Assembly (NCBI GenBank): GCA_027490575.1
Contig: JAIXXV010000032.1
Span: 13,211 to 77,210 of the forward strand
Reading direction: 5' to 3'
Length of the DNA: 64,000 nt
Origin: a bacterium
GTDB taxonomy: Bacteria > Patescibacteriota > Minisyncoccia > Phycocordibacterales > CAIZLB01
Part shown: in pieces, positions 7,059-63,764 of the stretch
Layout: every line of letters begins with the position of its first letter
Position numbering within the stretch: position 1 is the first letter of the stretch
Position numbers and translations under genes: made by a program
The notes under the pieces: generated by a model
Told to the model about the DNA's origin: nothing
The model's database searches: none
The model's input: only the letters and a program-made list of their open reading frames with translations

Positions 7059-8315
7059 ATGCCTCAAGTAAAACCAGAAATAGAAACATTCGCTAGAATC
7101 AAAGTCATCGGTATCGGTGGCTCAGGAAAAAACGCAACTAATCACATGATTAATGCGAAAGTTAAAAGTGTAGACTTCTTAGCTATCAATACTGATGCTC
7201 AAGATCTACACCACTCACTTGCAAAGAAAAAAATTCACATTGGAAAAAATCTAACACGAGGACTAGGTGCTGGTATGAATCCTGAAGTAGGTAAAAGAGC
7301 TGCTGAAGAAACAAAAGAAGAGATTCAAGAGGCTTTGAAAAACTCTGACATGGTGTTTGTTGCTGGAGGTCTAGGTGGTGGTACTTGTACTGGTGCTTCC
7401 CCTATCGTAGCAAAGATTGCTAGAGAGATGGGTGCTTTGACTATCGGTGTAGTTACAAAACCTTTCATGTTCGAAGGTCAATCTCGTATGAGACTTGCAG
7501 ACCAAGGCCTAGAAGAACTAAGTAAAGCCGTTGACGCTCTAGTAGTTATCCCTAACGACAAGCTTCTAGCCGCAGTTGGCAAAGACACTACTGCAAAGCA
7601 AGCTTTCAGTATGTGCGATGAGGTTCTTAGACAAGCAGTAGAGGGTATTTCAGACCTTATCACTATGCCTGGTACAGTCGGAAACATTGACTTTGCTGAC
7701 ATCAGAGCGGTCCTAGAGGACGCTGGATCAGCACTTATGGGTATTGGTAGTGCTAGTGGTGAAAAGAGAGCTGAGGAGGCCGCTAAAGCCGCTATCAGTT
7801 CCCCACTTATCGATATTTCTATCCATGGTGCCAAAGGAGTACTATTCTCTATCGCATCTGGAGACGACCTCACTATGTGGGAGATCCAGGAAGCTGCCAA
7901 GATCATTACTGACTCAGTTGATCCAAATGCCAAGATTATCTTCGGTACTGTAAAAGACGAAAAGCTCAAGAAAAATGAAATAAAGATCACTGTTATCGCC
8001 GCCAACTTCCCTGATTCATCAGCTTCTAGGAGATCATTTTCTATGAATCCAACTCAAGTAGTAGAGAGAGAAGAGATTGTTGAACCAAAAAGAGGTATAT
8101 TCAACTCATTTGGAGGAGGTTCATCTTCACAACCAGTACAGCAACAACCTCAGCCAGAACAAGCACCTGCTCCAGCTCCAGTGCACACACCTACTCAAGC
8201 AAGCCCTATAGTGGAGACAAAGCGCACTGAGGCTCCTACACCTATACAGACAGTACAAGATGATGACGACGAATGGGGTGCTGTGCCAGCGTTCCTAAGG
8301 AGAAGTAAGAAGTAG
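7059..8315 (+). CDS. ftsZ: Cell division GTPase FtsZ
   Basis: GIGGSGKNA and GGLGGGTCTGASP tubulin signature. P/Q-rich linker and C-terminal peptide DDDEWGAVPAFLRR. Confidence 0.95.
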   Translation: MPQVKPEIETFARIKVIGIGGSGKNATNHMINAKVKSVDFLAINTDAQDLHHSLAKKKIHIGKNLTRGLGAGMNPEVGKRAAEETKEEIQEALKNSDMVFVAGGLGGGTCTGASPIVAKIAREMGALTIGVVTKPFMFEGQSRMRLADQGLEELSKAVDALVVIPNDKLLAAVGKDTTAKQAFSMCDEVLRQAVEGISDLITMPGTVGNIDFADIRAVLEDAGSALMGIGSASGEKRAEEAAKAAISSPLIDISIHGAKGVLFSIASGDDLTMWEIQEAAKIITDSVDPNAKIIFGTVKDEKLKKNEIKITVIAANFPDSSASRRSFSMNPTQVVEREEIVEPKRGIFNSFGGGSSSQPVQQQPQPEQAPAPAPVHTPTQASPIVETKRTEAPTPIQTVQDDDDEWGAVPAFLRRSKK

Positions 8316-12346: not shown

Positions 12347-12381
12347 TTTGTAAATTATTAGCACCACCCACCTTTTGCACC

Positions 12382-12465
12382 CAATTCTTAATCCTTAATT
12401 CTTAATTTGCCGGTTCTGTTAATTCTGCGGGCAATTGTCAATTGCTAATTACTAATTACTAATTG
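12382..12465 (+). repeat. 7-nt periodic spacer, TAATTNN/CAATTNN class (12 heptads)
   Basis: caattct taatcct taattct taatttg ccggttc tgttaat tctgcgg gcaattg tcaattg ctaatta ctaatta ctaattg. The array overlaps the antiporter stop codon. Confidence 0.7.
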
Positions 12466-13832
12466 CTCACCTCCAACTTCCTCGCAACCCATTTAGTCAA
12501 AGGCGGTTGTATCACCAGAGTCATAATTATCACCCACATACCTATTGAGATAAGCATTTCAGGGTTACCAATATCGTATTTTGTCAAAAGACCACTGTAT
12601 GCAACTTGCACAAGAAGTACTGCTGGGATAACGCCAGTCTCTCGGACCCATGACATGAAGAGAAGCTCGCGAGTGTTAAGATCAATCTTCTTTGAAAAGA
12701 AACCGAGTGATAGAAATACTGAGGCAGGACGCACGATGAACATAAAGACAAGTCCGGCGAGTATTCCAAACCAAGCGTATTGTAGTAGCATTTGCACATT
12801 GACCAATGCTCCTAGGAGTATAAAGATACTTGGCTTTGCAATCCCCTCCACCAGCTGATTGAAAAATGTTTCTGTCTTGTGCACTTTTTCGTTCAATACA
12901 ACTAGAAGCCCTGCGATGAATGATGCTAAGTAACCACTTCCGCCAAACAGTACCGCAAATGCATATGCCATAATAGGGATAGCGATGAAGAAACCGATGT
13001 CGGCGTGGCACTCCGCACGCATTACCCTTTGTCTAACAAAAAATCGGATTGCAAAGAATCCGATAATACCAACTATTGACCCTACTACTAGCTCTTTTGA
13101 TAGGAAAATCATTGATTCCATAGAGACTAGTGCGCTAATACCTTGTGACATGTGCGTAAAAGCCCCTGCTCTTTCTACATACGTGATAAATGCCAATGTG
13201 ACCAAAGTACCAACCACGTCCGTCAATGCACTTTCTGAAACCAAGATGTCTTTGATACGGTCTTTCTTGAGCTTAAGCTCTTTGAACACAGGGATGATGG
13301 CTGCTGGATCAGTCGATGCAAGTATTGCCCCCAAAAGTAGTGCTAGCGACACGGACATTGTCATACCTGTCACTGTGCCGAGGACCGATAGACCTTGTGC
13401 CATAAAGAGAGTAGATGCCACAAGTCCGATGAAAGATAGTAGTACGGTAGGTAAAACTATTTTTCTAAATGATGAAAACGATATCTCCAAGCCTCCACCA
13501 AAAAGTATATATACCGCTGATATAGTAACTATCATGTTTAGAGCTGCGCTGTTTTCTATAAGTGGTTCCAACAAGTTGTGCATACTTAAACCTATAAACA
13601 AGGCAACTAGAAACGATGGAAATATTGTCCCCCTAGAGAGCGAGTGACAGATGGTACCCAGAAGAAACATTCCTCCTATCAAAAACAGTGGGGTTATACC
13701 CCCTACATGATCCACAGGAATCATTTCCGAATACTGTACAAACAATGCATTGAATATTGCAAAAACCGTAACACTGGTCAAAAGTATAAATGATGATGAA
13801 TGTCTCTTAAGCTTGCTTAGTTTGGCTATCAT
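12459..13832 (-). CDS. Monovalent cation:proton antiporter (CPA1/NhaP-type Na+/H+ exchanger)
   Basis: 457 aa with about 11-12 TM segments. The ASTDPAAIIPVF motif is typical of the Na+/H+ exchanger family. Confidence 0.8.
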   Translation of the reverse strand: MIAKLSKLKRHSSSFILLTSVTVFAIFNALFVQYSEMIPVDHVGGITPLFLIGGMFLLGTICHSLSRGTIFPSFLVALFIGLSMHNLLEPLIENSAALNMIVTISAVYILFGGGLEISFSSFRKIVLPTVLLSFIGLVASTLFMAQGLSVLGTVTGMTMSVSLALLLGAILASTDPAAIIPVFKELKLKKDRIKDILVSESALTDVVGTLVTLAFITYVERAGAFTHMSQGISALVSMESMIFLSKELVVGSIVGIIGFFAIRFFVRQRVMRAECHADIGFFIAIPIMAYAFAVLFGGSGYLASFIAGLLVVLNEKVHKTETFFNQLVEGIAKPSIFILLGALVNVQMLLQYAWFGILAGLVFMFIVRPASVFLSLGFFSKKIDLNTRELLFMSWVRETGVIPAVLLVQVAYSGLLTKYDIGNPEMLISIGMWVIIMTLVIQPPLTKWVARKLEVSN

Positions 13833-16943: not shown

Positions 16944-17237
16944 TTAGGCCTTGGACATATACTCAGTATTAAATATTTCTAGCATTTCAGACTCAGTAAA
17001 ATCTTCTTGTTTGTAACAATCATCGTGGTTCTCATTTGCGAAAGCCAGAGTATATTTTCCATCATCTTGTTTTTTCACACCATACAAACTTATAGCACCG
17101 TACTCTATTGAGTGAATGATTTGAGACATAGTACCAATCAACTCTTCCTTATCCTCCTGATACTCATGATCATGAAAATGATACATAAGCAGCGCTTTGT
17201 CGATTGGTGGGTTTTCACCTTGGTGTGGATTTTCCAT
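16944..17237 (-). CDS. Hypothetical acidic protein (97 aa)
   Basis: ORF only. No motif recognised. Confidence 0.4.
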   Translation of the reverse strand: MENPHQGENPPIDKALLMYHFHDHEYQEDKEELIGTMSQIIHSIEYGAISLYGVKKQDDGKYTLAFANENHDDCYKQEDFTESEMLEIFNTEYMSKA

Positions 17238-27334: not shown

Positions 27335-27390
27335 CAGTTAGCAGGTATCAGATGACAGATATCAGTTGTCAGATAGCAGGTATCAGTTAG
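27335..27390 (+). repeat. 7-nt periodic spacer, CAGNTNN class (8 heptads)
   Basis: cagttag caggtat cagatga cagatat cagttgt cagatag caggtat cagttag. Starts directly after the prsW stop. Confidence 0.75.
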
Positions 27391-27981: not shown

Positions 27982-28010
27982 GAAAAAAGACCCTAAACGG
28001 GTCTTTTTTA
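27982..28010. terminator. Bidirectional terminator between hsp20 and rpsP
   Basis: aaaaaa agaccc taaac gggtct ttttt. Confidence 0.75.
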
Positions 28011-32160: not shown

Positions 32161-34515
32161 TTATTTAGCAACCGCCACCGCCTCATCAAAAGCTATAGAC
32201 AACAACTTAGAGTATCCCTCACCTCCCATCGTCACTCCGTATATAACACCAGCACGTGACATTGTCTCTCTATTGTGAGTTATAAGTATAAGCTGTGAAT
32301 GTTTAGACAAAGCCTCAATCATATCTCCATACTTTCTAGAGTTAGCCTCGTCGAGCGCTGCGTCTGTTTCATCTAGTATTACAAATGGTGGTGGATTTAC
32401 CTGTGACATTGCAAAGAGTAGTGCAATAGATGTTAGCGCTCGTTCACCTCCTGAGAGCATTGTAAGTCCCTTTATGCGTTTATGTGGCAAAGAAACATTG
32501 ATCTCAATACCTTCTTCGGCCGGTTCGTCACCATCTAGCTCTTCAGCAAGAGCAACTGACAAGTCACCACTGTCATCCTCCAGGTCACCCTTCTTTTTCT
32601 TTCGCTTTATTTCTTTTATGAGTTTAAGCTCGGCTGTACCACCTCCAAACATTAGTCCAAAAAACTTTCCAAACTCTTTATTGATTTTAGAAATACCATC
32701 CTTGAAAAGTTCACTGAGTTTTTGATTTAACTCATCTATCAGAAGTTTCAATGATTCTGAAGAAGTTATCAAATCTTGTAGCTCTTTCGCCAAGAAAATA
32801 TCCCTTTCCTCCGCATCTTTGTATTCTCGAACTATATCGTCGCCTCCACCGCCACCCATTTCCTCAAGTCTGATCTTTGATTTTTCCACAGCACGTCTTC
32901 TATCCACTTGGGCATGTCTATCTTCGACAACAGAGAAGTCAACTTCGGCGTTTTCATAATCCACAGCGTCTCTACCAACAAGCATGTGCGCCTCTTGTAT
33001 TTCACTTTTAAATTCTTCCTCCTCAACTCGAAGTCTTTCTTCTTTGGCCTTTACGGTCTCTATATGAGAATGTAACTCATTTTGCTTGGACATTATCACA
33101 AGTACAGCCTTTTCACTTTCAACATTCTTATCACGTTCTTTGTCTATATCCACTTTTATCTGTGTATATCTTTCTGATTGCTTTAATTCTTCTTCAGAAA
33201 ATGTTCTGAGTTTTTCCTCAAGAGTTTTCATTTCCTCGGATATGCGCTTTATCTCAGCTTCCTCTGTCTCAGTGCTGTTTTGCGGCTTCTCAACGTGATC
33301 TGATTCTTTGTGATAATTTACAAAACTACTAATACGCTCATGAATATCTTGGATAGATTGTTTTACGTAAGCCAATCTTTGTTCTGGAGATGCATTTGCA
33401 TGATCACCAATGCCGTCTATGGCTTCCAGAGCAACAGTTGCTTTGACGTCTATATCTTTTTGAATGAGCTCCACATCTTTCAAGTAGACTTGCTTAGTAC
33501 TTTGCACATCAATGTGGTTTTCTGACTCCTTTATCTTTTTATCTATAACTCTTTTTAGATATGAAATCTCACCTTCTAGTCGCCCTATCTCCCTGGTGCA
33601 AGAGTCTTTCTTGGCTCTAGTATCTCGCATCTCTTGCTCAAGTGACAAGAGTCCAGACATACTACTGCTTTGCCCTAGGTTGGCCTTTGCTTCATCCAGT
33701 ATAGACTTGTGGTGAACTAGCTCTTGGTGCAACTTTTCTAGCTCTTCTTGCGGAGCTTTCTTTTCATTTGACAGTCTAGCTTTCTCCATTTTTATATAAT
33801 GATTTTCACGAGCAAAATACTCTTTGTACATACCAACCAACTCTTGGCGCAAAACCACAGCCTTTTCAATCTTCTCCACCTGCTTCTTCAAAAATTTTAT
33901 ATGTGGTGCGATCTCACGCCTAAGTGACTCAATCTCTTTGATGTGATTACCCGTTTTCTCTAGCTTCTTTTCACTTTCTTGTTTTTTGTATTGATACACC
34001 TTTAGACCTAGTGCATCCTCTATCATCTCTCGCCTATCTTTTGGTTGAGCTGACAAAAGTCTATCAGCTTCACCTTGCGAAATGATATGGTGACCAGACG
34101 AGCCTATATTGGCATAAGCCAAAAGCTCCACGACATCTTTTAGTCGCACAAGCGTGCCGTTTATAAAATACTCATTAACACCATCTCTATGGACCACACG
34201 CTCTATAGAAATCTCATCGAAGTCCATGTTGAACATCCGGTTCGTATTATCGAAAACAACTTTCACTGACGCCCTGTTTGCACGCGCACTGTCCTTACCT
34301 CCGTTGAAGATAAGATCCTCGCCTTTTTTCCCTCTCATAGACTTGAGTGATTGCTCACCAAGCACAAAACGAAAAGACTCCGCCACATTTGACTTACCCG
34401 AGCCGTTTGGACCAACAATAGATGTTATAGGAGAAGTGAAGGTCAAAGATCCCTTTTTTGAAAATGATTTGAATCCGTTTATTTCTAGGGATTTTAGACG
34501 TGAGACGAAGGACAT
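32161..34515 (-). CDS. smc: Shortened SMC-family chromosome segregation ATPase
   Basis: N-terminal head FKSF...GPNGSGKSNVAESFRFVLGEQS. C-terminal head LSGGERALTSIALLFA...VILDETDAALD. A coiled-coil-like middle. 784 aa from ATG 34515. Confidence 0.8.
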   Translation of the reverse strand: MSFVSRLKSLEINGFKSFSKKGSLTFTSPITSIVGPNGSGKSNVAESFRFVLGEQSLKSMRGKKGEDLIFNGGKDSARANRASVKVVFDNTNRMFNMDFDEISIERVVHRDGVNEYFINGTLVRLKDVVELLAYANIGSSGHHIISQGEADRLLSAQPKDRREMIEDALGLKVYQYKKQESEKKLEKTGNHIKEIESLRREIAPHIKFLKKQVEKIEKAVVLRQELVGMYKEYFARENHYIKMEKARLSNEKKAPQEELEKLHQELVHHKSILDEAKANLGQSSSMSGLLSLEQEMRDTRAKKDSCTREIGRLEGEISYLKRVIDKKIKESENHIDVQSTKQVYLKDVELIQKDIDVKATVALEAIDGIGDHANASPEQRLAYVKQSIQDIHERISSFVNYHKESDHVEKPQNSTETEEAEIKRISEEMKTLEEKLRTFSEEELKQSERYTQIKVDIDKERDKNVESEKAVLVIMSKQNELHSHIETVKAKEERLRVEEEEFKSEIQEAHMLVGRDAVDYENAEVDFSVVEDRHAQVDRRRAVEKSKIRLEEMGGGGGDDIVREYKDAEERDIFLAKELQDLITSSESLKLLIDELNQKLSELFKDGISKINKEFGKFFGLMFGGGTAELKLIKEIKRKKKKGDLEDDSGDLSVALAEELDGDEPAEEGIEINVSLPHKRIKGLTMLSGGERALTSIALLFAMSQVNPPPFVILDETDAALDEANSRKYGDMIEALSKHSQLILITHNRETMSRAGVIYGVTMGGEGYSKLLSIAFDEAVAVAK

Positions 34516-34522
34516 GGTTTTA

Positions 34523-34578
34523 CAGTTATCAGTTAGCAATTAACAGTTAAAGAATTAAGAAATCAATAGTTAATCCAA
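34523..34578 (+). repeat. 7-nt periodic spacer (CAGTTAN grading into AATTAAN), 8 heptads, directly upstream of smc
   Basis: cagttat cagttag caattaa cagttaa agaatta agaaatc aatagtt aatccaa. Confidence 0.65.
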
Positions 34579-35396: not shown

Positions 35397-35438
35397 CCAA
35401 CTGTTAACTGCTATCTGATATCTGTCATCTGACACCTG
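35397..35438 (-). repeat. 7-nt periodic spacer, CAGNTNN class (6 heptads, minus orientation) abutting the nusB stop
   Basis: Minus strand reads caggtgt cagatga cagatat cagatag cagttaa cagttgg. Confidence 0.75.
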
Positions 35439-36362
35439 TTAAGCTACCACGTTCTGTTTTTTAAGCAATATCTGTACCGCCTTCGTAACTATTGGCAAAA
35501 TGTCATTATAAAAATTGAGCGTTAGTAGATCTTTTGCATTAAACCACCTTGCATCTGTTAGTCCTCCACTGGTTCCAAGTGTAAGCGGTATAAAGTCGGA
35601 CTTTGCCAGGTAGTAACAAACTTGCTTTCGAATCTTGCCATCTTCTGGATGAGATGCAATGTACTCATTGTTAGCCAACTCTTCCTCTATCTCAATATCT
35701 ATACCCATCTCCTCCTTAATCTCACGCATGATGCCATCTTTCATATCTTCGTCACCTTCTAATTTACCTTTTGATAGAGTCCAGTGCCCAAAAACATCAT
35801 GAACTAGAGCGAACTGCATCTCACCATCGTGCATGGCATATACCACAGCACCTCCTAGTTTTTGTATTGGCATTTCTTCATAAGGAACTTCCTTTTTCTC
35901 CTTTTTTTGCTTTTTTGTAGAAACCTCCTCCTTTCCTGGCTCGCCCATCTCTTTGTAGACAGCACCGAGTACTCCGTTTACGAACTTGCCGGATGTTTCC
36001 CCTCCGAAAGACTTCGCCAGCTCAATAGCCTCGTTGATGGCCACTTTAGCTGGTACCTCCTTCCTATCGCCAAAAATTAGCTCAAAAAGGCCTATTCTGA
36101 GCACATTTCGATCAACTATCGCAATCTTGGGTATTGGCCACTCAGGAGCTGCTTTTTCAATGATTAGGTCTATTTCAGGGTTCTTTTTAACCACACCATC
36201 TACAATGTTTTTAATAAACGAAAAATCGCCCATACCAGGAGCGAATTCTTCAACATTTCTTTGAACAATTTCACCAACAACAGCAGAGTCTGAAATACCT
36301 CGAAAGTCTCTTTCGAAAAGTGATTGTAGTGCTATTGATCGTGAAAGGTGCCTATTTGCCAT
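35439..36362 (-). CDS. nusB: NusB antitermination factor fused to a C-terminal Nudix hydrolase domain
   Basis: N-terminal ~140 aa are NusB-like (RSIALQSLFERDF...AINEAIELAKSFG). A K/E-rich linker follows. The C-terminal domain has an intact Nudix box GKLEGDEDMKDGIMREIKEEMGI. Confidence 0.8.
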   Translation of the reverse strand: MANRHLSRSIALQSLFERDFRGISDSAVVGEIVQRNVEEFAPGMGDFSFIKNIVDGVVKKNPEIDLIIEKAAPEWPIPKIAIVDRNVLRIGLFELIFGDRKEVPAKVAINEAIELAKSFGGETSGKFVNGVLGAVYKEMGEPGKEEVSTKKQKKEKKEVPYEEMPIQKLGGAVVYAMHDGEMQFALVHDVFGHWTLSKGKLEGDEDMKDGIMREIKEEMGIDIEIEEELANNEYIASHPEDGKIRKQVCYYLAKSDFIPLTLGTSGGLTDARWFNAKDLLTLNFYNDILPIVTKAVQILLKKQNVVA

Positions 36363-37114: not shown

Positions 37115-37888
37115 TTAGATGGATTTACGTATATTACGACAATAACTCTCTCTATGCAAGTCAGATAATCCATGTTGTGATATAAGGCGCCGGTGAGACT
37201 CCGTACCGTACCCTTTGTGCTTTTCAAAGCCATATTTTCCGTATTCTGGATTATTCGCACATTTGGCCATATTTAGATCCCTTTTCACCTTTGCATAGAT
37301 AGAAGCAAATGATATGACCATCTCTTTTTCATCACCTTTTGTAAATGTTTCCTGGTTTTCGAAATCCGCCGGAGCTTTCAGTCCACCGTCGAGTAAAATG
37401 CAATATTCAGATTCAGTTGATCCAGTATCTCTCATGTGTTTTTGAAGACCGTCACCGATGCAACTTTTTATACACATACTTATACCTTGGTTATCAATTT
37501 GCCTAGCTGTTTTTGATAGGTAAATGAAACTTGCAGAGGAGCCTAGCTCTGCGTCCTTAAAAAATCTTGACCAAGATTCCCTCAGCGCTGATGAAAGTTT
37601 TTTTGAATCTTTTTCATACACATATGAGAGTTTATGCTTTTTAAGATTCTCTTTGTTTTTCTTTAAAAATTCTTTATATGAATTTGAGACATTCTTCACA
37701 AAGGGCATGAAGCAGATACCTACACCTACTGGACCTGCCAGAGGCCCTCTTCCTACCTCATCTATACCTACGAGCCACTTTGGTTTATGACTTTTCAGTG
37801 TGTTTTTTGGTGTACTTTTTCTCGCCCGTATTTGCACAGGTTTTTGCGCAGGTCTTTTCACGATCATTTGTTTAGCCATTAGTGTCAT
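37115..37888 (-). CDS. rnhB: Ribonuclease HII with a basic N-terminal extension
   Basis: GIDEVGRGPLAGPV catalytic motif and HKGYGT. Confidence 0.85.
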   Translation of the reverse strand: MTLMAKQMIVKRPAQKPVQIRARKSTPKNTLKSHKPKWLVGIDEVGRGPLAGPVGVGICFMPFVKNVSNSYKEFLKKNKENLKKHKLSYVYEKDSKKLSSALRESWSRFFKDAELGSSASFIYLSKTARQIDNQGISMCIKSCIGDGLQKHMRDTGSTESEYCILLDGGLKAPADFENQETFTKGDEKEMVISFASIYAKVKRDLNMAKCANNPEYGKYGFEKHKGYGTESHRRLISQHGLSDLHRESYCRNIRKSI

Positions 37889-44817: not shown

Positions 44818-46161
44818 TTAACCGATAATCCCCTTTTTCAACATGTTTTGTCTTTTGAATTCAGCAATTCTATTGTCGATACTTGGTTTGTTGTATTTGT
44901 AGAATGCATAACCAGCGATCGAACTCCACAGTATCATTGCCAATGTTATAACTATCATCTTTGGACCAAAGTCTATACCTGTTGCAGGTACTTGGTTTAG
45001 GAATACTCCAGATACAGGTACACCAGTTACAGGTGTTTGATCTCTGATAACTGTTACGTTAGAAGCTACAGTGTTTGCAAAGATGGTTGTAGCACAAGTA
45101 GCGCTTACACTTTGACCATTTACAAATGCAGTAACACTCGCTGTCTTGTATCCAGGTATGTTGTAAGATCTAGTTAACTGAGCAGAATTTCCGAAAAGTC
45201 CATCAGTTCCTGACCAGTTGTATGAAGTTGCACCCCAGATATTTCCATTTACATACATAGTCCATGTAACGTTTTGGTTTATGAATGCAGTTGCAGGTGT
45301 AGCTACACAGTAAGCTCCGATAGGATTTACAGGTGGTACATAAGTGTCTTGTATAAGAACATTACATGATCTAGTGATTGATTGATTACCAGATGTGATA
45401 GTTACATAAGCTGTCTTGTATCCAAGTGATGCAAATCTTCCCGTAAATGATTGACCTGATGCACTTATACCATCACTTCCTGACCATACGTATGTGTAGT
45501 TTCCAGAACCTCCAGAAGCAGTTGCCATGAAAGTTAGGTTTTGATTAACAAATGCAGTTGAAGGACTAATGATACAGTTACCATTTAGAGTAGGTTCGGA
45601 AGGAGTGTTTGTATTTGAACCACCGCCACCTAGTACAACTAGACTGATGTTGTTGTTGTTTACAGGGTTAAATGTGTTTGAGTTGTTGTTTGTTGCACTA
45701 GCTGTACTGTTGTTTGTGTTAGTGTTTGTATTTCTGTTGGTATTTGTGTTTGTATTAGTATTTGAAGTATATACATACGAAAGCTGAGGGGCAGGTGTAA
45801 ATCCAAAACCTCCTCCACCACCTACATTGTTGTAGACATATCTTTGAGCTGGGGCCGCAACGAATCCTCCACCTACACGGTTTTGAACAGGTTGTACGTA
45901 TCTTTGCGTAGGGGCTGAAAATACAGGGTTTGAATATGTTGTATTCAATCTATATCCTGAAGAAGGACTTGAGTATACAGGGTTAGAGTAAGTTGTATTC
46001 AATCTATACCCAGAACCCGTTGTTCCAACACCTGACAAGCCAGAGCTTGTTTTAGATGCAAAAGTAACTCCTGGAAACAGCGTCACAGAAGAGACCAAAA
46101 TGGCTAGAAATATGAATTTCCCCGCTTTTTGTAGACTTTTTATATTTGTAATTGTTTTCAT
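44818..46161 (-). CDS. Cell-surface protein: signal peptide, low-complexity Asn/Thr/Gly region, two PKD-like Ig domains, conserved C-terminal anchor module
   Basis: The repeat C-x-P-x-A-F-x-NQ...GSGNYTYVWSGSDG...GYKTAYVT occurs twice. The C-terminus is PVSGVFLNQVPATG + TM + KYNK...AEFKRQNMLKKG. Confidence 0.7.
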   Translation of the reverse strand: MKTITNIKSLQKAGKFIFLAILVSSVTLFPGVTFASKTSSGLSGVGTTGSGYRLNTTYSNPVYSSPSSGYRLNTTYSNPVFSAPTQRYVQPVQNRVGGGFVAAPAQRYVYNNVGGGGGFGFTPAPQLSYVYTSNTNTNTNTNRNTNTNTNNSTASATNNNSNTFNPVNNNNISLVVLGGGGSNTNTPSEPTLNGNCIISPSTAFVNQNLTFMATASGGSGNYTYVWSGSDGISASGQSFTGRFASLGYKTAYVTITSGNQSITRSCNVLIQDTYVPPVNPIGAYCVATPATAFINQNVTWTMYVNGNIWGATSYNWSGTDGLFGNSAQLTRSYNIPGYKTASVTAFVNGQSVSATCATTIFANTVASNVTVIRDQTPVTGVPVSGVFLNQVPATGIDFGPKMIVITLAMILWSSIAGYAFYKYNKPSIDNRIAEFKRQNMLKKGIIG

Positions 46162-49873: not shown

Positions 49874-51127
49874 ATGAAAAACTTTATTAAAATCATTATC
49901 ATAGTAGCAATACTGGTTATACTGGTATTTCTAAGTGTTGGTATAGTGCGTATTGTACCTAGAGTAGTGTCTTCCCTAGCCTCAGCTACGGTGTCACTTG
50001 GCTCATTTTTTACTGGTGGTTCAGACAGCAATGCCACTTCAACTTCAAGTAGTGGTAACAGTACTAACAATAATGGTACTCAAACATCTACATCTACAAG
50101 TGGAAATGGTTTTGTAGTGATTAATGGAACATCAACAAATTCTAGCAATGAAGATGATAGATCATTGGTCAATATACTTAGACCAAACAATACTTCAGGG
50201 CAACCTACTCAAGGTTCAAACAATTCAAACACTTCGAATGTAAAGAACTCTGTAAACAATTCTGCAAACGCAGGTACAGGCAACGTCTCTTATGTTGCAA
50301 ATACATGTACTAACGGTCGTGTATCTGATCTTGCCGTGAGAGTGCTTTCTCGTGGTGTTATGAACAAGGCTACAGGTCAATACATAGAGACCAACTCATT
50401 TACATCAGCTGACACTGTCATCGTAAAGTTTATAGCTGAAAACAGAGGAAGCTGTCCTACGGGCACATGGAGTCTAAGAGTAGACATGCCATCACAAAAC
50501 ACAGCTGATAGAGTTAGAAATATAGTAAACGTAGCTAGTCTTCCTGCTGGTTCTACAGTAACAGGTGAAGTTAACTTCACTACACCTGTAGTTGGAAATT
50601 CAAATGTAACTCTAACAGTAACTGATAACTCAGGTAGAGATTCAAATCTTTCAAACAATACAGTACCGACTTCGATTACGACTATTGCTACTAACACAGG
50701 TACAAATCCTGGAACACCTATCACAGGTGATGGAAGACCTGACCTGGCAGTGCGAATACTTAGAATGGGTACACTTGGATTCAATAACCAATTCGTCCCT
50801 ATCGCAAATACTTCATCTAACTTCGGCGGTAACTTCAGAGTTGGTGAAAGAGTTGCAGTACAATTTGAAGTCATTAACCAAGGACAAACACCTACTGGTG
50901 CATGGACATGGAGAGCTGACTCTGTAGCATTTCAAAATGGAAGCTATACAAACAATCAGTATGAAAATTCAATCCCTGCAGGAGGCAGACTTGTATACAC
51001 TATTGGATTTGATAGTCAGACTATAGGTACAAACAATATCTCTGTCACAGCAGATCATTTGAACCAAGTAAATGAGTTCAATGAATCAAACAATATCGCT
51101 GGTGTTAGTTTCAATGTTGGATACTAA
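49874..51127 (+). CDS. Secreted protein with two CARDB-like domains
   Basis: N-terminal TM/signal and an S/T/N-rich linker. Two units begin with DLAVRxL and the second ends with NEFNESNN (CARDB-type). Confidence 0.6.
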   Translation: MKNFIKIIIIVAILVILVFLSVGIVRIVPRVVSSLASATVSLGSFFTGGSDSNATSTSSSGNSTNNNGTQTSTSTSGNGFVVINGTSTNSSNEDDRSLVNILRPNNTSGQPTQGSNNSNTSNVKNSVNNSANAGTGNVSYVANTCTNGRVSDLAVRVLSRGVMNKATGQYIETNSFTSADTVIVKFIAENRGSCPTGTWSLRVDMPSQNTADRVRNIVNVASLPAGSTVTGEVNFTTPVVGNSNVTLTVTDNSGRDSNLSNNTVPTSITTIATNTGTNPGTPITGDGRPDLAVRILRMGTLGFNNQFVPIANTSSNFGGNFRVGERVAVQFEVINQGQTPTGAWTWRADSVAFQNGSYTNNQYENSIPAGGRLVYTIGFDSQTIGTNNISVTADHLNQVNEFNESNNIAGVSFNVGY

Positions 51128-56119: not shown

Positions 56120-56920
56120 CTAGGCCTTAGTCGCCTCAATACACATAAACAATGGGATCTCCTTTCTTGCCAAATCTTCTATCTTTGCCTTTGGGCCACT
56201 TTGACTCTTTTTATGTGATGACCATTCTTCAAGCTTTGTTATTGAAAAGCCGTTCTTTGTAAGCCATTTTACAAAAACCTGTAGAGGTCTGTGATATGAC
56301 ACTGTGTATTGTTTTAAGTCTTTCTTGTGAGAAGGCACGCTTGGATTCATATCTATCTTTATCATTCCTTCACTTAGATATCTGTATACTACCCTGCCTT
56401 GTTTGCCGATATTTGGATCATCGCCCACTCTTTTGCTTTCATTGAAATACCAATCAGAACTTTGGGGTATGCGAAACGATGGATGGTTTAGAACCAAAAC
56501 AAGTCTTCCACCTTTAGCTAATACACGTGAAGTTTCTTTAAAAACAATATCAAGCTCTTGGATATTTTGAGCAGCTAGTATGCAAATTGCCACATCCATT
56601 GAGCCTGTTGCGATCTTTGATAGATCATGAGCTGGAGAAACTAAAAATCTAGCGTTCTTGTGATTCATCTTTATGGACTGCTCTTTTGCCATAGATACCA
56701 ACTCAGATGATATATCTAACCCTACCAGACTTTTAACCTCAGGTGCGAATTGCATACTAAAAAAACCTTGTCCACAGGCAATATCTAACAATGACTGATT
56801 CTTGTTCAGAGAAAGTATCCTCTTTAGATTCGGAAGGATTACCTTGTTTTGATAAGAGTCCTCATCTTTTAAATACTGATCGTACCAATTCGCTACACCA
56901 CCCCATGAAGTTTTTGACAT
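56120..56920 (-). CDS. Class I SAM-dependent methyltransferase
   Basis: Motif I LLDIACGQGFFS and a later acidic-loop pattern. 266 aa. Confidence 0.75.
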   Translation of the reverse strand: MSKTSWGGVANWYDQYLKDEDSYQNKVILPNLKRILSLNKNQSLLDIACGQGFFSMQFAPEVKSLVGLDISSELVSMAKEQSIKMNHKNARFLVSPAHDLSKIATGSMDVAICILAAQNIQELDIVFKETSRVLAKGGRLVLVLNHPSFRIPQSSDWYFNESKRVGDDPNIGKQGRVVYRYLSEGMIKIDMNPSVPSHKKDLKQYTVSYHRPLQVFVKWLTKNGFSITKLEEWSSHKKSQSGPKAKIEDLARKEIPLFMCIEATKA

Positions 56921-56961
56921 TAATTCTTAATTGCTATCTGATAACTGTTATCTGCTACCTG
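56920..56961 (-). repeat. 7-nt periodic spacer, CAGNTNN class (6 heptads, minus orientation) running into the methyltransferase start codon
   Basis: Minus strand reads caggtag cagataa cagttat cagatag caattaa gaattaa followed by tg (ATG). Confidence 0.75.
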
Positions 56962-57841: not shown

Positions 57842-58609
57842 CTATAGGTTGAATATACGTCTGAAAAAAGATCCTTTACTCTCCGGATGAGCGCCGTGTA
57901 AGTTGGGTTCTGGATGACCTTTTTTTGTTATCATAAGTACAAATAAAACCACCATAGCCAAGTAAAGCGCAAGTATCAATGGATCAGCTACCACAAAAGA
58001 TGTAGGTAAGAAAAATACTAGAAATAGCCAACTAAGATTGCCTGGTAGCTCAAGGTTGTGTAGCCTCCTAGTAATCATTGACATCATCATAAGCGTAACT
58101 GGCGCAAGTATAAATGGGATGGTTGTGATAAAGAGCCCTTCTTGGTCTGACTCAATAGCCGTAGTGATTGCTTCCCAAAGATTTGGAGAAAGTACAGATA
58201 TAGCAACAGCTCCTATGACGAGCGATAGATAGCCGACACTAAAGAAAAACAGAAAACCTAATATGAAGTCCTTTCTGCGAAGTCTACCGGCAAAAAGACC
58301 TTCGTGCTTTGCCACATGAGCGATTTTGCTCTTAGATACGCCTTCGATATGCCTAGTATCAACACGCCCTGATTCACTTGGTACACTGGATGCACTAGGT
58401 GTACCAGGCATACTTAGCGGTGGCAAGAAATCATTTTGAGCAACTAGGTCTTGATGGATATTTTTGTGCTGTCTCCTAACCTCATTGAATCCGTCCGTAA
58501 TATCTGCTTCTGAAAAACCAGCTCTTAGAAGCATCTGCTTTATATGCTCAGGAGATGTTGAATGCTCTAACTTTAGTCTTATAAAAGAAACTATTCCTTG
58601 TTCAGTCAT
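57842..58609 (-). CDS. DUF805-family membrane protein
   Basis: GRLRRKDFILGFLFFF motif followed by 4 TM segments. Confidence 0.55.
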   Translation of the reverse strand: MTEQGIVSFIRLKLEHSTSPEHIKQMLLRAGFSEADITDGFNEVRRQHKNIHQDLVAQNDFLPPLSMPGTPSASSVPSESGRVDTRHIEGVSKSKIAHVAKHEGLFAGRLRRKDFILGFLFFFSVGYLSLVIGAVAISVLSPNLWEAITTAIESDQEGLFITTIPFILAPVTLMMMSMITRRLHNLELPGNLSWLFLVFFLPTSFVVADPLILALYLAMVVLFVLMITKKGHPEPNLHGAHPESKGSFFRRIFNL

Positions 58610-60080: not shown

Positions 60081-60656
60081 CTATAATTTACGTATAACCG
60101 CTTTAACTACAGCAGCAATTTTGAGGTCATACTCAGGGTATATATTTTTAAATTTTTTATTTGCCGGTTCAAGGTATATCTGACCTTTTTTATCTCTCCT
60201 AAAATACTTCATCGTCCAACCTCCGTCGACTTCTGCGATTACAATATCTCCCACCTTTGCATTTTCAGTTCTCTCAACAAGAACAAGGTCACCTTCAGCT
60301 ATGTGAGCTTCTATCATTGATTCCCCTTTCACTTCGAGCATATACGTTGAGCCTTTTGTACCTTCCAAAAGGAGCTCGTCTATAGAAGTAGAATCAAGTA
60401 CATCTTCTTCTGCCACTGTTGGCATACCAGCTTCTACTAGTCCAAGTAAAGGAATCTCATTTGAAAGCTTTTGGGGTGTAAGCTTGCCCCTCGAGTCCTT
60501 GTTGAATACACCTTCCTCTACAAGTTTGTTAATGAGTTTATAGACAGCATTTTTGGACTTGAATCCAAGCATATCCATAATCTCATTATACCCAGGCACA
60601 CGCCTATTGGTCTTATAGAAATTAAGTATTTTTTGTTTGTAATCTTGGTAAGTCAT
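60081..60656 (-). CDS. lexA: LexA repressor (S24 peptidase)
   Basis: N-terminal winged HTH. Cleavage/catalytic region VKGESMIEAHIAEGDLVLVER...GDIVIA...TMKYF. Confidence 0.85.
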   Translation of the reverse strand: MTYQDYKQKILNFYKTNRRVPGYNEIMDMLGFKSKNAVYKLINKLVEEGVFNKDSRGKLTPQKLSNEIPLLGLVEAGMPTVAEEDVLDSTSIDELLLEGTKGSTYMLEVKGESMIEAHIAEGDLVLVERTENAKVGDIVIAEVDGGWTMKYFRRDKKGQIYLEPANKKFKNIYPEYDLKIAAVVKAVIRKL

Positions 60657-60662
60657 TTTTTG

Positions 60663-60753
60663 CAGTTATCAGGTGGTGGTTAGCAGATATCAGGTATCAG
60701 ATGACAGATATCAGGTATCAGGTATCAGGTATCAGATGACAGATATCAGGTAT
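60663..60753 (+). repeat. Longest 7-nt periodic array, CAGNTNN class (13 heptads) immediately upstream of lexA
   Basis: cagttat caggtgg tggttag cagatat caggtat cagatga cagatat caggtat caggtat caggtat cagatga cagatat caggtat. Confidence 0.8.
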
Positions 60754-60787
60754 CCATTAAATGCTAATGCTTAGATGCTGGAGTCTA

Positions 60788-60985
60788 TTAAAACATGAAT
60801 GAGGCGAGTGAGAATGTTCTAGCTAATGAAGCCTCACTTTCAAGTCTTCTCAATTGTAGCATGAGGTTCTTATGCTTTCGAGATTCCTTTTCATATGATT
60901 CTCCTTTTATGATTTTAAAATCTATTCTTTTGTTGATTGAGTTAAGCTCTCTTCTTATTGCAAACATAATTGTCATTTTTCTCAT
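60788..60985 (-). CDS. Hypothetical small basic protein (65 aa), first ORF behind the SOS-type promoter
   Basis: ORF only. No SD. Position between promoter 61038-61066 and lexA. Confidence 0.3.
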   Translation of the reverse strand: MRKMTIMFAIRRELNSINKRIDFKIIKGESYEKESRKHKNLMLQLRRLESEASLARTFSLASFMF

Positions 60986-61037
60986 GGTATTTATTTTGTT
61001 ATTTTTTAATGTTCTTTGTCTTTCCTTGTATGTTTAT

Positions 61038-61066
61038 ATAATAGGTGAACTATAGTTCACTGTCAA
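61038..61066 (-). promoter_or_regulatory. Consensus promoter with a LexA-box-like palindrome filling the spacer
   Basis: Minus strand: TTGACA gtGAACtataGTTCacc TATTAT. -35 is at 61066-61061 and -10 at 61043-61038. The palindrome GAACTATAGTTC (61047-61058) matches the Gram-positive SOS box core GAAC-N4-GTTC. Confidence 0.55.
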
Positions 61067-61102: not shown

Positions 61103-61144
61103 CAGATAACAGTTGGTAATTATCAGGTGACAGTTAGCAGTTAG
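61103..61144 (+). repeat. 7-nt periodic spacer, CAGNTNN class (6 heptads) overlapping the helicase stop codon
   Basis: cagataa cagttgg taattat caggtga cagttag cagttag. Confidence 0.7.
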
Positions 61145-62615: not shown

Positions 62616-63764
62616 CTAACCCTGCATCTTCTTTTTTGTCTTTTGTTGTTGCATTAGTTTAAATGCAGTAGCTATGTCTGAAACAGAGGCTTGTGCATTG
62701 GCACTAGATGATACAGTTGACGCATCAGACGCATTTGAGAAAGACACGAGTCTCTGATTTCCAAATGAGTAATATTTATGGAATACAAGTGCACCCAGTA
62801 AACTACTTAGCATTAAGCCCGTAAGCAAGATTGCGCTTTTTACGCCAGGAGTTACTCCTGTTGCAGGAACTTGGTTTAGGAATACACCCGAGACCGGCTG
62901 TCCAGAAACACCAGAAGTGTACTGGTACGTAGGTTGAACATAAGTATAAGTAGTCGGTTGTGTATATACAGGTTGTGTATATGTTTGTTGGTAGTTGTAG
63001 TCGTAAGGATAATAGTATTGATTTGGATTTTGATATTGCCAATTCCAAGTTTGATTTTGCCAAGTATTGTTCCAACTACTATTATTCCAGCCATTATTCC
63101 ATGTATTGTTCCAATTATTATTCCAGTTGTTATTTGTTCCATAACCAACTTGTACAAATAAACTTGCACAAGAAGTATTATTAAATGATGAGCAAATTGT
63201 GTAAGACATTGTACCTAATTGATTACCTGTAACTGTTATCTGGCTACCACTTATATAAGCACTAGCAATACTTGAGTTATTGTTATTTGAAATAAAATAT
63301 CCTCCGCCAGTACCTGAGATATTTACAGATTGAGTTTGCCCCACATTCAGAGTAAGACTTGTCTGACTTAAGCTTATGGTTTGATTATTCCATGTTCCAC
63401 CTGTCACATTGACCTGAAGCGTTGCACAAGGAGCCATAGACGCTTGCGAACATATAGTTAGACTTGATGTTCCTTGAGATAGACCTTGAACTTGCACTAG
63501 TCCACTTGATGATCCTGCACTTACCACGGTACTGTTTGAGTTTGCTGATACGTAGTAGTTACCTGATCCACCTGACACATTTACAGTAACTGTTTGACCT
63601 GAGTTTATATTTATAAATGACTGACTAAGATATATTGGTCCGTAGTAAGGGGTTGACTGTGCACTAGCAAAACCACCTGGCACCAAAAAAGATAGTGCAG
63701 ATAGGCATACTGAAACTGCGAAAATGGTGCTTTTTATAGCTATTTTTTTAGATATATTTGTCAT
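62616..63764 (-). CDS. Cell-surface protein: signal peptide, two Ig-like repeats, Trp/Asn- and Tyr/Gln/Thr-rich tract, and the same C-terminal anchor module as 44818-46161
   Basis: Repeats ...GQTVTVNVSGGSGNYYVSANSN... and ...GQTQSVNISGTGGGYFISNNNN... WNNNWNNTWNNGWNN tract. C-terminus PVSGVFLNQVPATG + TM + HKYY...AFKLMQQQKTKKKMQG. Confidence 0.65.
   Translation of the reverse strand: MTNISKKIAIKSTIFAVSVCLSALSFLVPGGFASAQSTPYYGPIYLSQSFININSGQTVTVNVSGGSGNYYVSANSNSTVVSAGSSSGLVQVQGLSQGTSSLTICSQASMAPCATLQVNVTGGTWNNQTISLSQTSLTLNVGQTQSVNISGTGGGYFISNNNNSSIASAYISGSQITVTGNQLGTMSYTICSSFNNTSCASLFVQVGYGTNNNWNNNWNNTWNNGWNNSSWNNTWQNQTWNWQYQNPNQYYYPYDYNYQQTYTQPVYTQPTTYTYVQPTYQYTSGVSGQPVSGVFLNQVPATGVTPGVKSAILLTGLMLSSLLGALVFHKYYSFGNQRLVSFSNASDASTVSSSANAQASVSDIATAFKLMQQQKTKKKMQG

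Follow-up and report, generated by a model that had tools for sequence, protein, structure and literature searches.

CAG-type heptanucleotide arrays in the intergenic spacers of a Patescibacteria chromosome and their turnover between close relatives

Heptad arrays and their gene context

The stretch of DNA analyzed here (the window) is a 64,000-nucleotide (nt) piece of bacterial chromosome of about 40% G+C, taken from contig JAIXXV010000032.1 of GenBank assembly GCA_027490575.1 (positions 13,211 to 77,210, forward strand). Its genes include those for FtsA, FtsZ, S1, DnaE, GyrB, SMC, RNase III, a NusB-Nudix fusion, Hsp20, a LexA-like protein, and a Pif1 helicase, the closest named homologues of the LexA and RNase III proteins belonging to the Candidatus Paceibacterota/Patescibacteria group. 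Six of its intergenic spacers carry arrays of head-to-tail 7-nt direct repeats, designated A1 to A6, and a seventh, decayed array also lies in a spacer. An earlier note, made from the sequence alone, had described the units as CAGNTNN; the period holds, and the actual rule is tighter, namely, CAG-D-T-R-D (CAGDTRD), with C restricted to position 1; the window contains 14 of the 18 types that this rule allows.

The arrays depart clearly from chance. Units are called exact below where CAG recurs in register. A scan for the core C1, A2, G3, and T5 (at least 13 of 16 matches across four units) returned exactly the six array sites and none elsewhere in the window, compared with 0.31 sites on average and no more than 3 in block shuffles, and all six fall within the 13.6% of the window that is non-coding (median spacer length, 96 nt). 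The period-7 enrichment that the earlier note had proposed to look for was found in the pooled spacers, where the lag-7 autocorrelation was 0.312 versus 0.278 ± 0.005 after shuffling (z = 6.8), with an echo at lag 14. The value was still 0.297 without the six array spacers, owing to the seventh, decayed array at 12380-12470. The 17-mer CAGATGACAGATATCAG, which the note had counted four times, does occur in four exact copies, compared with none in 100 shuffles. The six arrays can be aligned in register with a common unit order (CAGGTAT CAGATGA CAGATAT CAGNTAG CAGTTAA CAGTTAN), a 24-mer of the form CAGGTRT-CAGATGA-CAGATAT-CAG recurring at three loci, twice at one of them, and CAGATGA being followed by CAGATAT in four of four cases. 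Of the 43 units in the window, 3 are CAGTTAT, as are 5 of the 40 from relatives (see below); the other units differ from it at positions 4, 6, or 7, and decayed units (CAATTAA, GAATTAA, TGGTTAG) are found at the array edges.

In four of the seven arrays the CAG strand is the sense strand, and the array begins at or beside the upstream stop codon. A1 (27335-27390, plus strand) consists of eight exact CAGDTRD units, starting 1 nt past the PrsW stop and finishing 57 nt ahead of the Hsp20 ATG. A3 (35397-35438, minus strand) has six exact units directly past the NusB-Nudix stop codon (35439-35441) and 48 nt ahead of the RNase III ATG. A4 (56920-56961, minus strand) comprises four exact units (56934-56961) plus two decayed ones (CAATTAA GAATTAA), its last unit running into a methyltransferase ATG at 56920. 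The decayed seventh array (12380-12470, minus strand) is made up of CAATTAG/TAATTAG units and then GAATTAA units, its first TAG being the stop codon of a Na+/H+ exchanger gene (12459-13832). The gene upstream of A3 (35439-36362, minus strand) encodes a NusB domain fused to a NUDIX hydrolase domain (307 amino acids [aa]), a fusion that is kept in relatives (307 to 317 aa).

In A2, A5, and A6 the sense strand is the CTG strand, and A2 and A5 end 6 to 7 nt before the downstream ATG. A2 (34523-34550, plus strand) has the four units CAGTTAT CAGTTAG CAATTAA CAGTTAA, which on the sense (minus) strand read TTAACTG..ATAACTG and finish 7 nt ahead of the SMC ATG. The earlier note had extended this array to 34578, and it is here that its list of six CAG-heptad spacers, all of them found where it had placed them, needs amending, the tail to about 34578 being decayed. 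The SMC-like protein itself (32161-34515, minus strand), at about 785 to 792 aa, is short for a bacterial SMC, and relatives are similar (784 to 796 aa). A5 (60663-60753, plus strand) is the longest array, with 13 units, i.e., 10 exact ones at 60684-60753 and three more 5′, one of them decayed (TGGTTAG); it contains an internal 35-nt, five-unit duplication (period 35, 97% matches). A6 (61103-61144, plus strand) has six units, one decayed and three exact (61124-61144), and overlaps the stop codon of the Pif1 helicase gene (61141-61143, minus strand). The contacts with the methyltransferase ATG, the nusB-Nudix stop, and the helicase stop reported in the earlier note were thus confirmed, as was its statement that orientation relative to the genes is not constant, with four CAG-sense and three CTG-sense arrays. 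Spacers of every kind are occupied, inside operons, between convergently transcribed genes, and ahead of a promoter.

That promoter is an SOS promoter (TTGACA-17-TATTAT; 61038-61066, minus strand; 11 of 12 matches) downstream of A6, with a LexA box, GAACtataGTTC, of the form GAAC-N4-GTTC in its spacer, and it is kept in relatives L122, L123, L125, L130, and L133 to L137. From the promoter, the order is a conserved 65-aa open reading frame (ORF; 60788-60985, minus strand), which is the first cistron of the operon, then A5, and then, immediately downstream, the gene for the LexA-like S24 peptidase (60081-60656, minus strand). The earlier note had placed A5 between the SOS promoter and lexA; with the small ORF intervening between promoter and array, A5 is an intercistronic element of the SOS operon. 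It ends 6 nt before the lexA AUG, and its transcript from the minus strand would read AUACCUG AUAUCUG UCAUCUG ... AUAACUG CAAAAA AUG. A rough 7-nt period (ATGCTAA TGCTTAG ATGCTGG) is also visible in the 34 nt from A5 to the small-ORF stop (60754-60787), which relatives L130 and L133 to L137 lack, their heptads beginning at the stop codon.

The 65-aa protein has no Pfam match and a hydrophobic C terminus. It is identical on 16 contigs from many samples, in which the adjoining lexA is only 77 to 86% identical at the nucleotide level, and more distant relatives carry orthologues of 62 to 65 aa; it may be an SOS-induced small protein. A plus-strand ORF at 60795-61055 (86 aa) was rejected as the target of the SOS promoter, being antisense to the 65-aa ORF while the promoter is on the minus strand. 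It is probably spurious, and no protein of exactly that sequence is on record.

No promoter-like or terminator-like sites were found in the A1, A2, and A3 spacers, a promoter-like site being located upstream of nusB, and these three arrays also appear to lie inside operons. More generally, no consensus promoter or terminator site was found to coincide with an array in the window. Between the convergent Hsp20 and S16 genes, a perfect 11-bp stem flanked by A and T runs (27983-28009) looks like a bidirectional intrinsic terminator; the organism would therefore use hairpin terminators, none of which were found at the heptad arrays. An Rfam 15 scan of the window at the gathering threshold returned only two tRNAs and no family matching the arrays. 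The arrays fold slightly better than dinucleotide shuffles (z of −0.2 to −4.3), with weak minimum free energies and low ensemble frequency. A role as an unstructured RNA landing pad was accordingly rejected, the arrays being no less structured than the shuffles, nor were the structures convincing.

Turnover at orthologous spacers

Relatives whose flanks are 77 to 98% identical to those of the window carry heptad arrays in the same spacers, and these arrays differ in unit number and content. In contigs carrying the identical 65-aa protein, the spacer between the small ORF and lexA consists wholly of NNANCTG heptads, with 5 units in L134 and L137, 6 in L130, 8 in L136, and 9 in L133 and L135, compared with 13 in the window. 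Orthology between L136 and the window extends over the five start-proximal units; the distal part of L136 is different. At the A6 position, there are two units in L133 and L135 and about four decayed ones in L130, versus six in the window. A second set of relatives is ordered by rnc nucleotide identities of 85.5%, 91.5%, and 98.7% into the tree (window, (L334, (L336, L337))). Its two closest members, L336 and L337 (98.7% identity), differ by exactly one unit upstream of smc, where L336 has five units and L337, like the window, has four. Both the conservation in close relatives and the length polymorphism that the earlier note had suggested looking for are thus present, at lexA as well as at smc.

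Content is replaced at fixed sites as well. The PrsW-Hsp20 spacer has eight CAG-type units in the window, nine CAG-type units in another order in L336 and L337, and (GAATTAA)3-4 in L334. In the nusB-rnc spacer, the six CAG-type units of the window correspond to GAATTAA-type units in L334 and merely to a 9-nt spacer in L337; the last unit reads CAGTTGG in the window and GAATTGG in L334, in both cases beside the same cccgacaaaag flank. Both L334 arrays are therefore of the GAATTAA type, whereas those of the window and of L336 and L337 are of the CAG type. The unit TCATCTG (CAGATGA) is found in A1, A3, and A5 of the window and in none of the relatives' arrays. As regards gene order, L334, L336, and L337 carry a block encoding RNase R, S16, Hsp20, and PrsW after smc, inverted relative to the window, and L336 and L337 have additional genes between rnc and smc.

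Part of the unit nonetheless varies little. When synteny, not the motif, was used to locate the relatives' arrays, T5 was present in 40 of 40 units, C1 and A2 each in 38 of 40, and G3 in 36 of 40, against entropies of 1.45 to 1.71 bits at positions 4 and 7, and 12 of the 18 CAGDTRD types were represented. The start-proximal units upstream of lexA and smc are also conserved, as ATAACTG or CCAACTG followed by an A-rich stretch and the ATG.

Farther out, in relatives with 75 to 82% LexA identity, no CAG-type arrays were found within 10 kb on either side of lexA (20-kb loci), and a motif-independent scan of the same relatives gave one AT-rich period-7 stretch only, in L125. This patchy occurrence, together with the turnover among the arrays of the closer relatives, shows the arrays to be clade specific, a long-lived state of particular spacers but with hypervariable number and content of units.

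Relation to known heptanucleotide repeats

The earlier note could name no class for the arrays. One exists, since tandem CAGTTAT, read on the opposite strand, is tandem TAACTGA, and TAACTGA direct repeats have been described in marine Beggiatoaceae, cyanobacteria, and some Bacteroidetes, nearly all of them intergenic (MacGregor 2015, PMC4679880). In the Guaymas Maribeggiatoa, they are mostly in forward orientation and within a few nucleotides of start codons that lack a Shine-Dalgarno (SD) sequence; sets are sometimes split by related heptamers, and in Microcystis they are mixed with other heptamers (PMC4679880). Cyanothece strains differ by 7-nt indels in such repeats, the phylogenetic distribution is patchy, and their function is not known, binding of S1, Csp, or CsrA-like proteins having been proposed (PMC4679880). 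Heptanucleotides are moreover the most abundant class of long simple sequence repeats (SSRs) in prokaryotes, according to Mrazek et al. (2007) as quoted in PMC4679880. Other members include the GGGNATC repeats of Xanthomonas and Nostoc (PMC4692102).

The window arrays are a lineage-specific example of these bacterial heptanucleotide repeats, and a TAACTGA-like one. They have in common with the TAACTGA repeats the head-to-tail 7-nt arrangement, the intergenic location, interruption by related heptamers, 7-nt steps between strains, and patchy occurrence; A2, A5, and their orthologues likewise end a few nucleotides before an SD-less start codon, with ATAACTG as a start-proximal unit at lexA and smc. 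They differ in that they mix at least 14 unit types under the CAG-D-T-R-D rule instead of forming runs of one unit, in that A1, A3, A4, and the 12.4-kb array are oppositely oriented and start at the upstream stop codon, and in their host, a member of Paceibacterota within the candidate phyla radiation (CPR) and hence of a phylum outside those reported. With heptanucleotide SSRs at large, they share the period, the non-coding excess, the variable unit number, and a genome-specific unit family. Unlike the GGGNATC type, their units are not G-rich, G-quadruplexes are not expected, and they are unusually heterogeneous internally. No report of heptamer repeats in Patescibacteria was found in the literature searched; the arrays are new for Patescibacteria/CPR and unusual for the mixture of units within an array and for their clear turnover at fixed sites.

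The CAG core is not special outside this lineage. Stretches of at least six CAGDTRD units, nearly all of them homogeneous runs, turned up at more than 120 loci in a genome scan; their hosts include cyanobacteria, Acidobacteriota, Planctomycetota, Bacteroidota, Verrucomicrobiota, and proteobacteria, among others. When viral contigs were scanned with the core permuted, the numbers of stretches were similar or larger (CAG, 45; GCA, 66; CGA, 37; AGC, 24; ACG, 14; GAC, 10), which led us to reject a pan-bacterial, CAG-specific heptad family. Heptad SSRs vary in sequence, each lineage having a unit family of its own. A metagenome scan for the 24-mer hit a single contig, L127 (JGI Ga0056115_1002364), from an unrelated organism of 50% GC, and so yielded nothing on variation among strains. 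L127 carries two inverted heptad arrays about 70 nt apart in the same spacer (7948-8106) and another array at 1701-1735; one array reads CAGGTGT CAGATGA CAGATAT CAGATGA, of which the block CAGGTGT CAGATGA CAGATAT is common to the window. The genes on L127 encode MttB, an ABC transporter, an octopine dehydrogenase-like protein, and ornithine cyclodeaminase.

Better-understood heptad systems were also considered. For the TGAAAGA repeats in the hmw1A and hmw2A promoters of Haemophilus influenzae (PMC2651432) and the TTTTGAT repeats in the promoter region of Vibrio cholerae ctxAB, copy number is reported to change transcription. The window arrays resemble these contingency loci as 7-bp units upstream of genes in strain-variable number. 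The hmw and ctxAB tracts, however, are homogeneous and lie in promoter regions of surface or virulence genes, whereas the window arrays are heterogeneous, are beside housekeeping and stress genes, and lie outside promoters. The earlier note had suggested slippage-prone tracts that alter promoter spacing. Unit-number polymorphism in relatives supports the first half of this; the second is not supported, no array being placed between a −35 and a −10 element. At lexA in particular, hmw-like promoter spacing does not apply, A5 being downstream of both the promoter and the small ORF, and a contingency locus of the hmw/ctxAB type was rejected with the sole strong promoter (61038-61066, minus strand) outside A5 and A6.

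A reiterated short motif in a fixed register also recalls the sites of oligomeric regulators. The omega repressor of pSM19035, a ribbon-helix-helix (RHH) protein, reads WATCACW heptad operators in either unit orientation; HutP sites are of the form (UAG-N4)3, and TRAP sites are (G/U)AG repeats, the register being 7 nt for omega and HutP. An omega-like or other RHH operator array was rejected on account of units that differ from the WATCACW consensus and the lack of promoter overlap; no RHH domain was found among 30 window proteins scanned. Arrays of the HutP or TRAP type were rejected as well, with no terminator-like hairpins at the arrays and both orientations occurring.

What prokaryotic heptanucleotide repeats do has been a long-standing question since their description in cyanobacteria and Beggiatoaceae. 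The window extends such repeats to Patescibacteria/CPR, with their tiny genomes and little spare DNA, and adds comparative evidence of fixed spacers in which unit number and content turn over rapidly between close relatives.

Probable slippage and competing explanations

We favor, at a probability of roughly 0.6, the view that the arrays are slippage-driven heptanucleotide microsatellites filling transcribed intercistronic spacers. They would arise and be resized by slipped-strand mispairing in steps of one to several 7-nt units, possibly with a contribution from exchange between arrays, and would spread until a stop or start codon is met, so that whole spacers become filled. Most of them lie within operons, and their transcripts would form intercistronic or 5′ leader sequence that is rich in stops and lacks SD motifs. 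They would need no dedicated function, and any effects on lexA, hsp20, rnc, and smc would stem from an untranslated spacer that varies in length and sequence. This view is suggested by the variation in unit number at the orthologous lexA and smc spacers, by the five-unit duplication in A5, which appears recent, by the decay of edges and replacement of content at fixed sites, and by the patchy occurrence in both orientations and in every type of spacer. It is also consistent with the abundance elsewhere of heptad arrays with many other cores and with the SSR precedents in the literature.

Several observations sit uneasily with slippage alone. Neutral decay should strike all seven positions alike, and yet C1, A2, G3, and T5 appear constrained, a position-specific pattern that hints at some further constraint. 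Neither the occurrence of the 24-mer at three loci nor the fixed succession of CAGATGA and CAGATAT would be predicted from independent slippage. The uniform GAATTAA type of the L334 arrays, against the CAG type of the window, L336, and L337, misfits a purely neutral version. The PrsW-Hsp20, smc, and lexA spacers have remained array-bearing over about 15% nucleotide divergence although the genome is streamlined, and the conserved start-proximal units upstream of lexA and smc stand in the place of an SD sequence. Slippage itself, finally, is deduced from the comparison of strains. The conserved core, the shared block, and the L334 type keep alive models in which a protein reads the arrays or in which arrays exchange sequence.

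Of these, the first, which was among the proposals of the earlier note, is a possibility that we consider doubtful overall though the strongest competitor. The heptads would be reiterated binding sites, one unit per monomer or dimer, tuning the translation or transcription of adjacent cistrons, and slippage would only supply variation. On the transcript, the reader could belong to the OB-fold proteins, like Csp or S1; on duplex DNA, it could be an RHH protein such as the omega repressor of pSM19035. The position-specific core in arrays located by synteny, with saturated variable positions, is the kind of signal that a binding factor would leave, and the persistence of the array state at the same spacers in diverged relatives is consistent with one. 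So is the placement of start-proximal arrays, which end 2 to 7 nt before an SD-less ATG in a window with SD-like motifs at just 14 of its 68 predicted genes. One of these genes (414-1541) codes for a homologue of ribosomal protein S1 that has three S1 domains. MacGregor's S1/Csp proposal for the TAACTGA repeats fits as well, Bacillus subtilis CspB having been reported to bind one heptamer per protein (PMC4679880), as does a preprint on Nostoc heptamers upstream of recF and recO, in which deletion of heptamer repeats is reported to alter the regulation of a recO reporter (bioRxiv 10.1101/2022.06.06.494920). However, the near-equal use of both orientations argues against one strand-specific RNA site, GAATTAA units take the place of the CAG core at the orthologous L334 sites, and the genes beside the arrays have no common function. 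A DNA operator is further disfavored by the lack of overlapping promoter-like sites, and an RNA site by arrays that are not less structured than shuffles. No candidate binding protein was found linked to the arrays, the flanking proteins of unknown function having no Pfam match.

A bolder and rather improbable form of the same idea is a genome-wide cis code of this Paceibacterota clade, C-A-G-N-T-R-N, read by a protein in a 7-nt register and either replacing SD-led initiation or setting cistron ratios, for which S1/Csp-like OB-fold proteins on mRNA or RHH-like proteins on DNA could be the readers. Were this true, co-evolution of the arrays would explain the core, the shared 24-mer, and the parallel switch to GAATTAA at two L334 loci, and unit changes would amount to a heritable, quickly adjustable control of stress genes like lexA and hsp20 in a minimal-genome symbiont. 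Should the constraint on the core be real, a small and simple genome with arrays beside lexA and hsp20 would be a convenient place to seek the factor. Otherwise the arrays are hypermutable microsatellites of an ordinary kind, of interest chiefly for marking strains and for the breaks they cause in assemblies. Regarding initiation in this organism, a TATAAT-like hexamer lies no farther than about 5 to 10 nt from the ATG in several genes (e.g., 16944-17237, 37115-37888, 49874-51127, and 57842-58609), which, with the scarcity of SD motifs, suggests frequent leaderless or very short-leader mRNAs.

Dispersal, with the arrays being copies of an element of about 42 nt resembling repetitive extragenic palindromic (REP) sequences or miniature inverted-repeat transposable elements (MITEs), or being homogenized by ectopic gene conversion, would account for the in-register alignment and common unit order of the six arrays, for the recurrent 24-mer, and for the restriction of TCATCTG to the window's own A1, A3, and A5. 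We regard it as quite improbable. Orthologous arrays occupy the same spacers with different content, as fits turnover in place, and no transposase or RAYT-like gene is present among the annotated window genes. A mobile REP/MITE-like element was specifically rejected in that the array flanks do not align, only the heptad core doing so, and neither terminal inverted repeats nor target duplications were found.

Frame-independent stop barriers, selected owing to unusual termination (TGA recoding or read-through), were another proposal of the earlier note and have very little left in their favor. Positions 5 to 7 (T-R-D) do include TAA, TAG, and TGA, and stop density in the arrays is 7 to 18 per 100 nt, compared with 5.9. 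The claim that stops fall in all three frames holds in the sense direction for four of the six arrays (versus 16% of control 42-nt spacer windows), but in each of the other two one frame is free of stops, roughly half of the units contain none (e.g., CAGGTAT, CAGATAT, and CAGTTGT), and there is nothing to terminate at arrays that lie upstream of a promoter or between convergent genes. The premise itself finds no support either. Among the 68 predicted genes, 29 end in TAA, 26 in TAG, and 13 in TGA; read with translation table 11, the ORFs have their full length, matching those of relatives (SMC, for example, at 792 aa). The genetic code is therefore standard, and TGA recoding or unusual termination was rejected.

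Assembly artefact, finally, is effectively refuted and of negligible probability: although short-read contigs L001, L131, and L132 end inside A5, as expected from its internal 35-nt duplication, A1 to A3 are 100% identical, base for base, in contigs from other sequencing runs (SRR30952591 and SRR30952575) and in the NCBI metagenome-assembled genome GCA_027484805.1, all assembled independently from the same strain, A1 is unchanged in independent assemblies L138 and L139, and the relatives' orthologous arrays occur in JGI, ENA, NCBI, and Logan assemblies.

Tandem repeats of other periods also occur in the window. Three copies of an 11-nt unit, AACTGTACATC, with 95% matches, lie at 266-298, about 115 nt upstream of the S1-domain gene. 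Two further tracts are inside large ORFs with no Pfam match, i.e., TGTTTG repeated nine times at 45711-45764 (ORF 44818-46161) and CTATTATTCCAG repeated 4.7 times at 63079-63134 (ORF 62616-63764); their periods (6 or 12 nt) being multiples of three, they would encode peptide repeats.

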